From sequence record KF241843.1: a stretch of 5,035 bases of DNA; one strand, written 5' to 3'. A program made the position numbers and the translations under genes. Shown in pieces: positions 1,350-1,601 of this stretch; positions within the stretch are counted from its first letter, which is position 1; each line of letters begins with the position of its first letter. Source of the DNA: Escherichia phage phi-8. Under the pieces are notes generated by a model that was not told the DNA's origin, made no database searches, and was given only the letters and a program-made list of their open reading frames with translations.

Positions 1350-1601
1350 TCAGGCAGCCTTGTTGTAAATGTTGCAGGTATCAAGTAAGTAATTAGATGG
1401 AGCGCCATAAATTATGAATTCATCGTTTGTCGGGTCCATCTCCATCTCTTGTCCTATTGCCATTCTTGCGTCAGTGTCGTCAGCGGCGAAGCATAAAACA
1501 GCCCACGCACCCATTGTTTTAAAAAGAACTGCAATTGGCTGTGGTTTTACTGAATTTGCGTTAGCGCGAAAATCACAAATCGCACTTTCATGAAATTCCA
1601 T
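1350..1601 (-). CDS. Hypothetical 83-aa protein at the ral position (not Ral-like)
   Basis: Track ORF 1350..1601(-) MEFHESAICDFRANANSVKPQ...CNIYNKAA; ATG 1599-1601 with strong SD GAGGTGA about 4-5 nt upstream (plus 1605-1611). No similarity I can recognise to lambda Ral, though the stop falls where lambda ral stop would map by offset. Confidence 0.55.
   Translation of the reverse strand: MEFHESAICDFRANANSVKPQPIAVLFKTMGAWAVLCFAADDTDARMAIGQEMEMDPTNDEFIIYGAPSNYLLDTCNIYNKAA

Follow-up and report, generated by a model that had tools for sequence, protein, structure and literature searches.

An Ala-Ala-stop habit of lambdoid early genes with a possible dual role in RNA hairpins and ClpXP turnover

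Three small proteins encoded in a 5,035-nucleotide stretch of DNA from Escherichia phage phi-8 (KF241843.1; the whole stretch is referred to below as the window) end in the same tripeptide, Lys-Ala-Ala: Ea10, the product of an 83-amino-acid open reading frame (ORF83), and Cro. We find that the meaningful unit is Ala-Ala-stop rather than Lys-Ala-Ala, and that an excess of Ala-Ala ends is real and specific to the lambdoid early-gene pool. Our best explanation of the whole, which we put forward tentatively, is that lambdoid early genes have a habit of ending in Ala-Ala-stop that combines an RNA layer, in which the last codons serve as arms of terminators or other hairpins, with a protein layer, in which the tail would be a degron for ClpX. 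The components are all of known kinds: ssrA-like C-motif-1 degrons, intrinsic terminators at gene ends, genes coupled by an ATGA start/stop overlap, and conserved module flanks. The class-wide regularity is apparently unreported so far. In a literature search whose coverage left out much of the older lambda work, we found neither an Ala-Ala excess in lambdoid early proteins nor a stereotyped Ala-Ala/stop-in-loop terminator unit reused by unrelated genes described.

Translation places the three Lys-Ala-Ala ends exactly where the original prediction had read them. Ea10 (DUF2528; Pfam PF10800, E = 7e-47) is a protein of 122 amino acids ending ...MTIKAA and is encoded at 799-1167 on the minus strand; its last three sense codons are AAA GCC GCC (802-810), followed by TGA (799-801). 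ORF83 (1350-1601, minus strand; phrog_2471, no Pfam match) lies in the slot that ral occupies in lambda and ends ...IYNKAA, encoded by AAG GCT GCC (1353-1361) and TGA (1350-1352). Cro (HTH_3, 71 amino acids, ...PEHKAA) is encoded at 4454-4669 on the plus strand and finishes with AAA GCC GCT (4658-4666) and TAA (4667-4669). The proposed common coding pattern, AAR GCY GCY stop, holds in all three genes. The next starts lie 72, 182 and 141 nt past the ea10, ORF83 and cro stops, respectively, so there is no ATGA start/stop overlap at any of the three.

We surveyed C-termini in two sets of loci, using our own simple codon-usage gene caller, which recovers all real genes of the window. The first survey comprised 92 loci of ~20 kb around this cro, which gave 353 protein families after clustering. 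Ala-Ala was the commonest C-terminal dipeptide, found in 30 of the 353 families against 7 for the runner-up and ~3 expected from composition; among decoys (open reading frames rejected by the caller) it ended only 0.7%. The second survey, of 54 loci with a diverged Cro, again put Ala-Ala first (40/371 families; runner-up, 8). It was also first among the 214 families of the second survey that have no relative in the first (15, against 7 for the runner-up). These family counts depend on our own caller and on single-linkage clustering, and shared junction DNA makes some families less than fully independent of one another.

The excess is concentrated in early genes. In the lambda annotation (NC_001416), 8 of 70 proteins end in Ala-Ala, namely portal B, orf55/p35, Bet, Ea10, Ral, NinB, NinC and NinG, and seven of these are early. 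With our gene caller, Ala-Ala ends were found in 7/29 early and 1/35 late proteins of lambda, 4/26 and 1/29 of HK97, and 7/31 and 0/28 of P22; in the Stx (Shiga toxin) phage they were found in 4/14 proteins of the cII-Q arm and 1/39 of the rest. Pooled over the four phages, 22/100 early proteins end in Ala-Ala compared with 3/131 late proteins (P = 1.6e-6). No such ends were found in Mu (0/48), T7 (0/46) or P2 (0/41), a highly significant difference from the lambdoid early proteins (22/100 vs 0/135, P = 1.6e-9). Four 50-kb stretches of the host, E. coli K-12, contained one in 170 proteins (P = 1e-9 against the early set), where about 2.3 would be expected from marginal frequencies. The original prediction had suggested surveying lambdoid early regions for enrichment of Lys-Ala-Ala; the surveys show a strong enrichment, of Ala-Ala and not of Lys-Ala-Ala. 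In P22 (our locus L099), the Ala-Ala ends include those of Cro (...YRQAA, 31744-31929), Kil (...RNHAA, 28001-28189) and gp17 (...ETTAA, 28414-28725), and the end of gp17 overlaps an annotated terminator.

We then collected relatives of Ea10, ORF83 and Cro and counted the tails of intact members. In the Cro family, 44 of 62 clusters end in Ala-Ala, which follows 17 different dipeptides (LN, HK, QH, LH, PK, HH, NN, NL, RS and others), and Lys stands at position -3 in just 8 of the 62. A shorter Cro variant (...PPKAA) retains the Ala-Ala end. Eight of ten ORF83 relatives end in Ala-Ala (NKAA, YKAA or KQAA), as do 20 of 66 Ea10 relatives, including some with longer tails (...VPQAA, ...SIPAA, ...KPAA); a distant Salmonella clade of the Ea10 family ends in EEVS or EEVL. 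These varied tails rule out Lys-Ala-Ala as a conserved unit, and it is the terminal Ala-Ala that is conserved instead. Across 19 Ala-Ala families, conservation at -1 and -2 was 0.83 and 0.74, compared with 0.59-0.67 at -3 to -6 (P = 0.006). The 64 families without Ala-Ala ends showed flat C-terminal conservation and differed significantly from the 19 (P = 0.0003).

These data also settle how surprising the three tails are. About 9-11 proteins have their C-terminus inside the window (Gam, Kil, CIII, Ea10, ORF83, N, a 60-amino-acid open reading frame, a 173-amino-acid open reading frame (ORF173), CI and Cro). The original prediction had called three shared tripeptides among about ten proteins unlikely by chance, and with residues treated naively as independent this is correct (P ~1e-5 for any tripeptide in 3 of 10 proteins). 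Because ~22% of lambdoid early-region proteins end in Ala-Ala, however, three or more such tails in ten are ordinary for this class (P = 0.38). The triple Lys on top of Ala-Ala has a probability of about 0.005 and is a modest, incidental extra coincidence. The finding was picked post hoc from a long read-through, and the shared Lys can be left to chance. For Ala-Ala, the idea that three unrelated proteins merely end alike is effectively refuted by the naive probability and by the recurrence of the excess in lambda, HK97, P22, the Stx phage and two independent sets of locations.

Where the Ala-Ala ends sit is highly uneven. Calculating rates per family-context with both surveys pooled, we found Ala-Ala at 17 of 22 ends where a terminator spans the stop (77%) and at 28 of 126 ATGA overlaps (22%), compared with 3 of 53 TAATG-type overlaps, 6 of 84 ends with the next start no more than 15 nt away, and 21 of 485 free gene ends (~4%). 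This dependence on context (only 4-7% outside the first two classes) shows that a large share of the excess is made at the nucleic-acid level. The stop-spanning terminators follow a stereotyped scheme, with R-GCY-GCM, a loop containing the stop, GGCRGC and a T-run in that order. Junctions of the overlap class have the sequence (G)GAGG-CNG-CA-TGA, in which the Shine-Dalgarno sequence of the next gene supplies Glu, Arg or Gly at -3.

Such figures raise the possibility that the tails are purely by-products of GC-rich nucleic-acid elements (terminator stems and Shine-Dalgarno-spacer-ATGA overlaps) at packed gene ends, with Ala the most benign reading of GC-rich codons (GCN) and no role for the protein end. 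In favor of this, two of the three tails in the window are hairpin arms, and codon -3 is often GAG or AGG, a piece of the next gene's Shine-Dalgarno sequence. We nevertheless consider it somewhat unlikely as a full account. Ala-Ala is still the top dipeptide at free ends, and none of the 22 families with a stop-spanning terminator reads the stem in a Pro-Pro, Arg-Arg or Gly-Gly frame. In addition, exposed Ala-Ala ends would be expected to be seen by ClpX whatever their origin.

Several candidate causes at the coupled junctions were rejected. A preference for GCNGC as the spacer between Shine-Dalgarno sequence and ATG, within the ribosome-binding site, does not account for the motif: it occupies positions -5 to -1 at 79 of 281 overlapped junctions but at only 4 of 813 non-overlapped starts with a Shine-Dalgarno sequence and ATG in the same regions. 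The motif is thus a feature of how the upstream gene ends and not of the downstream start, which also argues against a by-product of ribosome-binding sites. Nor is there a generic effect of ATGA overlaps, since none of 37 such overlaps in the host, late genes and other phages carries Ala-Ala; the late and lysis overlaps of lambda (A/W, W/B, Z/U, H/M and R/Rz) all lack it. We also found no evolved hairpin that would hide the downstream ribosome-binding site: pairing of the Ala codons was 0.61 compared with 0.66 in flank-shuffled sequences, and the Shine-Dalgarno sequence and AUG were no different. Both of these results count against the by-product explanation.

The tie of the motif to the stop codon rather than the downstream ATG could instead reflect a translational optimum, in which Ala-Ala before the stop aids clean termination and re-initiation in coupled early operons and leaves protein stability unaffected. 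By our counts Ala-Ala is most frequent at ATGA overlaps, as such an optimum would have it. The absence of Ala-Ala from the 37 host, late-gene and other-phage overlaps, the small excess at TAATG-type couplings and the tail of Cro, which has no coupled downstream gene, make this very improbable. We know of no mechanism for such an effect. A study of C-terminal composition likewise reports none.

The tail of ORF83 is part of a predicted intrinsic terminator. The element at 1330-1361 (minus strand), found by terminator scan and folding, reads AAGGCTGCC-TGAT-GGTGGCCTT followed by TATTTTTGGC: a GC-rich 9-bp stem with a 4-nt loop and then the T-run TATTTTT, with a folding energy of -15.1 kcal/mol (z = -2.3), as in a rho-independent terminator. 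Its 5' arm consists of the Lys-Ala-Ala codons and its loop contains the stop codon; the AAG codon for Lys pairs with the T-run. Alignment to lambda identifies a conserved 3' flank of the ral slot at 1290-1366 (minus strand); the alignment stops at 1290 with homology to lambda still running. Near-identity begins at ACAACAAG (~1366), four codons ahead of the stop, and continues through the terminator. The last four codons of ORF83 (AAC AAG GCT GCC), its stop and the terminator are thus homologous, almost base for base, to the 3' end of lambda ral (ACAACAAR GCT GCC TGA), whereas the remainder of ORF83 bears no relation to Ral. Upstream of this terminator, or of a close variant, we found no fewer than five distinct sequences, and four proteins with no relation to one another (83, 66, 107 and 227 amino acids) run in frame into it, all ending in Ala-Ala. 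Because homology to ral starts four codons before the stop and unrelated cassettes share the terminator, the NKAA end of ORF83 belongs to the fixed 3' flank of the slot. The complete terminator and the last four codons would have been inherited together, and an inherited flank is what a by-product explanation would call for.

Previous reporter work on lambda tR2 examined a GC-rich hairpin and T-run a few bases from a stop codon (PMC4824070). When the stop lay only a few bases from the terminator, a ribosome positioned there blocked the hairpin and reduced termination from ~90% to <10%, and termination was restored when translation was uncoupled. The ORF83 unit differs in that the stop lies within the loop and the last 2-3 codons form the 5' arm, and in that the unit is reused by unrelated genes, nearly always in the Ala-Ala frame. 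By extension from the reporter results, a ribosome ending ORF83 would cover the hairpin, so that the stop-in-loop terminator would act on untranslated RNA only.

A conserved boundary sequence used for modular recombination was one of two readings offered by the original prediction, and for ORF83 it fits: the same flank stands behind non-homologous cassettes. It does not extend to the three tails together, which are alike in their codons only. In its general form, GCN GCN stop plus a Shine-Dalgarno/ATGA overlap or a terminator would be a boundary for module exchange that spreads since joints there keep both genes functional, with the tails hitch-hiking. Conserved short DNA at the junctions of exchangeable modules is what the boundary or linker sequences of modular lambdoid theory, a model already in the literature, describe. 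The NinG-type junction GAG GCN GCA TGA precedes five different downstream genes, AGG GCG GCA TGA is shared by unrelated upstream genes before one downstream gene, and the Ala-Ala habit is limited to one recombining gene pool. Against this, Ala-Ala junctions show no sign of being preferred recombination joints: Ala-Ala families had 3.6 downstream partners compared with 4.0 for other coupled families (P = 0.43; 8 vs 22 families, a comparison of low power). Mosaic joints are seen on either side of Ala-Ala junctions. Unlike the sequences of modular theory, the shared motif is very short (just 8-9 specified bases, with flanking Shine-Dalgarno codons that differ by junction) and is read as protein, and its extra conservation at the amino-acid level goes unexplained. 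As an account of the whole, we regard a recombination linker as improbable.

At ea10, a predicted hairpin at 792-807 on the minus strand (GCCGC-CTGAGC-GCGGC) has the two Ala codons as its 5' arm and, again, the stop codon in its loop. The hairpin has no T-run in the window, and one is present in lambda and in diverged relatives (L184/L185). Lambdoid Ea10 relatives differ in tail length and loop sequence but retain a GCCGC/GCGGC stem whose loop holds the stop. A homologue that is 77% identical (L187/L188, 1501-1872; tail ...TIKIID) lies in a P2/P4-like element and has neither hairpin nor Ala-Ala, a further point for a by-product. It sits there between a primase gene and Ogr/Delta and portal genes, and because of its presence in such an element we conclude that the Ea10 family moves between phage types. 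For ea10 and ORF83, then, an RNA-level explanation as terminator stems is sufficient: in both, GCY GCC would serve as the 5' arm of a GC-rich hairpin with the stop in the loop. Several records label Ea10 a single-strand DNA-binding protein. A fold search of Ea10/DUF2528 against the PDB gave no significant match (best E = 1.9), so the label appears to lack fold-level support here.

Cro behaves differently. A small hairpin, CCGCTT-AAT-AAGCGG, spans the cro stop (4662-4676, plus strand; terminator scan and fold) and has no T-run on the coding strand. We rejected it as the cause of the tail, as it is missing from all diverged cro loci (L085-L088, L104-L157) and appears to be specific to the cro/nutR junction of this phage. 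A viral-contig scan with Cro had returned 80 loci with identical Cro and a genome scan 10; a diverged Cro was then used as a new seed. In the diverged loci Ala-Ala is encoded as GCT GCC, GCC GCC, GCA GCT, GCA GCA or GCC GCT, the stop and boxA region always come next, and there is no hairpin and no overlapping gene, with unrelated DNA downstream. Since synonymous codon pairs vary and no RNA element is present, the Ala-Ala of the Cro family appears to be kept for its residues, or the constraint acts at least on GCN GCN. This is difficult to reconcile with a pure by-product. A linker fares no better, because in the alignment the mosaic joint at cro falls exactly at the gene end, directly behind the stop (4669/4670, relative to L085). 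That locus, from another E. coli prophage, has a 99%-identical cro with a lambda-type nutR straight after the TAA (boxA CGCTCTTA, boxB GCCCTGAAAAAGGGC). A boxA-like sequence (CGCTCTTTA) follows the stop in all cro relatives. From reading of the sequence, the window has a nutR-like region at 4680-4725 (plus strand), with a boxA-like CGCTCTTTGTAACAA at 4680-4694 and a boxB-like stem-loop TCGCTGAAAAGCGA at 4712-4725.

If the residues matter, ClpXP turnover is the likeliest consequence of the Ala-Ala ends, by analogy with known substrates; this was the other reading of the original prediction. Natural C-motif-1 degrons include the N-terminal fragments of LexA and RseA, which end in VAA, and RecN. 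Like these and the ssrA tag, all three proteins have a free C-terminal Ala-Ala-COO-, which would be the core of the signal. Previous work shows that this group is the dominant ClpX determinant and that ClpXP degrades other proteins with an Ala-Ala end. Of the 100 strongest degrons from a random-tag screen, 91% carried terminal Ala-Ala, and the data of that screen imply that ~61% of the random tags with this end were enriched at least to the level of the YALAS reference tag. The prophage antitoxin CmdA also ends in Ala-Ala, and its ClpXP-dependent instability is lost when AA is changed to DD. The degron reading is consistent with these established rules, and it gains indirect support from the keeping of Ala-Ala at the residue level in the Cro family, from the raised conservation of -1 and -2 in Ala-Ala families and from the predicted exposure of the Cro tail. 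Taken together, the two readings of the original prediction are partly supported. Under it, Cro, Ea10, ORF83, lambda Bet, Ral, NinB, NinC and NinG, and P22 Cro and Kil would be weak-to-moderate ClpXP substrates, and turnover would limit how long early proteins last. Ala-Ala may be kept for this role in the Cro family, whose tail is not accounted for by any RNA element, and Lys at -3 would have no part in the signal. The Cro tail is predicted to be unstructured and flexible: residues 64-71 are modelled as coil, and 69-71 have a predicted local distance difference test (pLDDT) score below 50.

Several observations weigh against a degron role, in addition to the incomplete independence of the family counts. 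The residue before Ala-Ala is Lys in all three proteins (TIKAA, YNKAA, EHKAA) rather than non-polar, and elsewhere it is often Glu, Arg or Asn, where ssrA and C-motif-1 degrons have Leu or Val; ahead of Ala-Ala, charged or polar residues (K, E, R, N, H) prevail over the Leu or hydrophobic residues of strong degrons. Further upstream, such degrons favor neutral, hydrophobic or slightly basic residues. The residue before Ala-Ala is reported to be a modest and not an essential contributor to the degron, and in the random-tag screen His, Pro, Gly and short polar residues were disfavored at -3. The early genes of Mu, T7 and P2, which face the same ClpXP, have no Ala-Ala tails; the tails are therefore a habit of one gene pool and not a universal phage strategy. 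The dependence of Ala-Ala on terminators and overlaps is not predicted by pure selection at the protein level. In the AlphaFold model of Ea10 (pLDDT 94.8), the last ~6 residues form a surface coil at pLDDT ~80, so this tail does not seem clearly disordered. Finally, our literature search found no report of ClpXP turnover or degradation data for the Ala-Ala-tailed early proteins discussed here. The tails also differ from the ssrA tag in having no SspB-binding segment and in being gene-encoded, doubling as a terminator arm in two cases.

Lambda O provides a precedent for ClpXP control of the early program, since host ClpXP determines how long this lambdoid early protein persists. O carries its degron at the N-terminus (N-motif-1) and is recognized by open-channel ClpX, whereas the tails described here would use the closed-channel C-motif-1 route. 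A more far-reaching proposal, which we consider unlikely but worth stating, is that lambdoid phages systematically tag about one-fifth of their early proteins (recombination, nin, anti-restriction, Cro and Kil-type proteins) with a minimal ssrA-like Ala-Ala. ClpXP would then remove the whole early proteome together, or be transiently saturated by it, and either effect would provide a global lysis-lysogeny timer, with the stop-in-loop terminator and the GCN-GCA-TGA junction carrying the tag between genes. If an Ala-Ala end set the lifetime of many further early proteins, Cro of this Stx group and of P22 among them, as ClpXP does for O, then host proteolysis would feed into prophage induction and the choice between lysis and lysogeny far more broadly than is now assumed. 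The stop-in-loop terminator unit offers a concrete way to swap unrelated accessory genes into the ral slot while translation-gated termination is kept. Even if the tails are by-products, annotation and evolutionary models should take into account that, in the best-studied phage group, one C-terminal dipeptide is in ~20-fold excess.

The window is a cloned polymerase chain reaction (PCR) product and not native phage DNA, because both ends (1-80 and ~4986-5035) carry what we take to be plasmid polylinker, similar to that of pGEM-T-Easy with NotI, EcoRI, SpeI and similar sites. The 4.9-kb insert is the early/immunity region of a group of Stx-converting lambdoid phages, to which it is 99.7-99.9% identical (phages 2851, Stx2a_WGPS4/8, 1717, Stx1-converting phage and Stx2 II). 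On the minus strand it carries gam (79-495), whose stop codon (79-81) was created across the joint of vector and insert, as well as kil (450-719) and cIII (562-726). The only Rfam match in the window is the lambda cIII thermoregulator RNA element (RF01804, 88.5 bits; 681-739, minus strand). A second terminator-like hairpin with a T-run (AACGCTTCACTCGAGGCGTT; 746-775, minus strand; terminator scan and fold) lies between ea10 and cIII.

Beyond ORF83 is N (1660-1932, minus strand), whose start differs among public records (1932 or 2004, within the region 1660-2092). Some records annotate the 60-amino-acid open reading frame (1910-2092, minus strand; phrog_3137), which overlaps the region upstream of N. 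ORF173 (2661-3182, minus strand; phrog_2602, no Pfam match) sits downstream of cI (3684-4340, minus strand), where lambda has rexAB. The paper on CmdA describes this position in lambdoid prophages as a variable defense locus. The ~500 bp between ORF173 and cI (3183-3683) contain just short, weakly coding open reading frames and a small hairpin (3366-3352), and could be a gene remnant or a non-coding element. On the plus strand, cro is followed by the start of cII, from 4811. Right behind a 40-amino-acid open reading frame (2365-2487) there is a strong terminator-like hairpin, AACCCGGCCTCCATGCCGGGTT, with a T-run (2338-2359, minus strand); it is similar to CCCGGCCTCAGCGCCGGGTT, which comes after lambda rexB.

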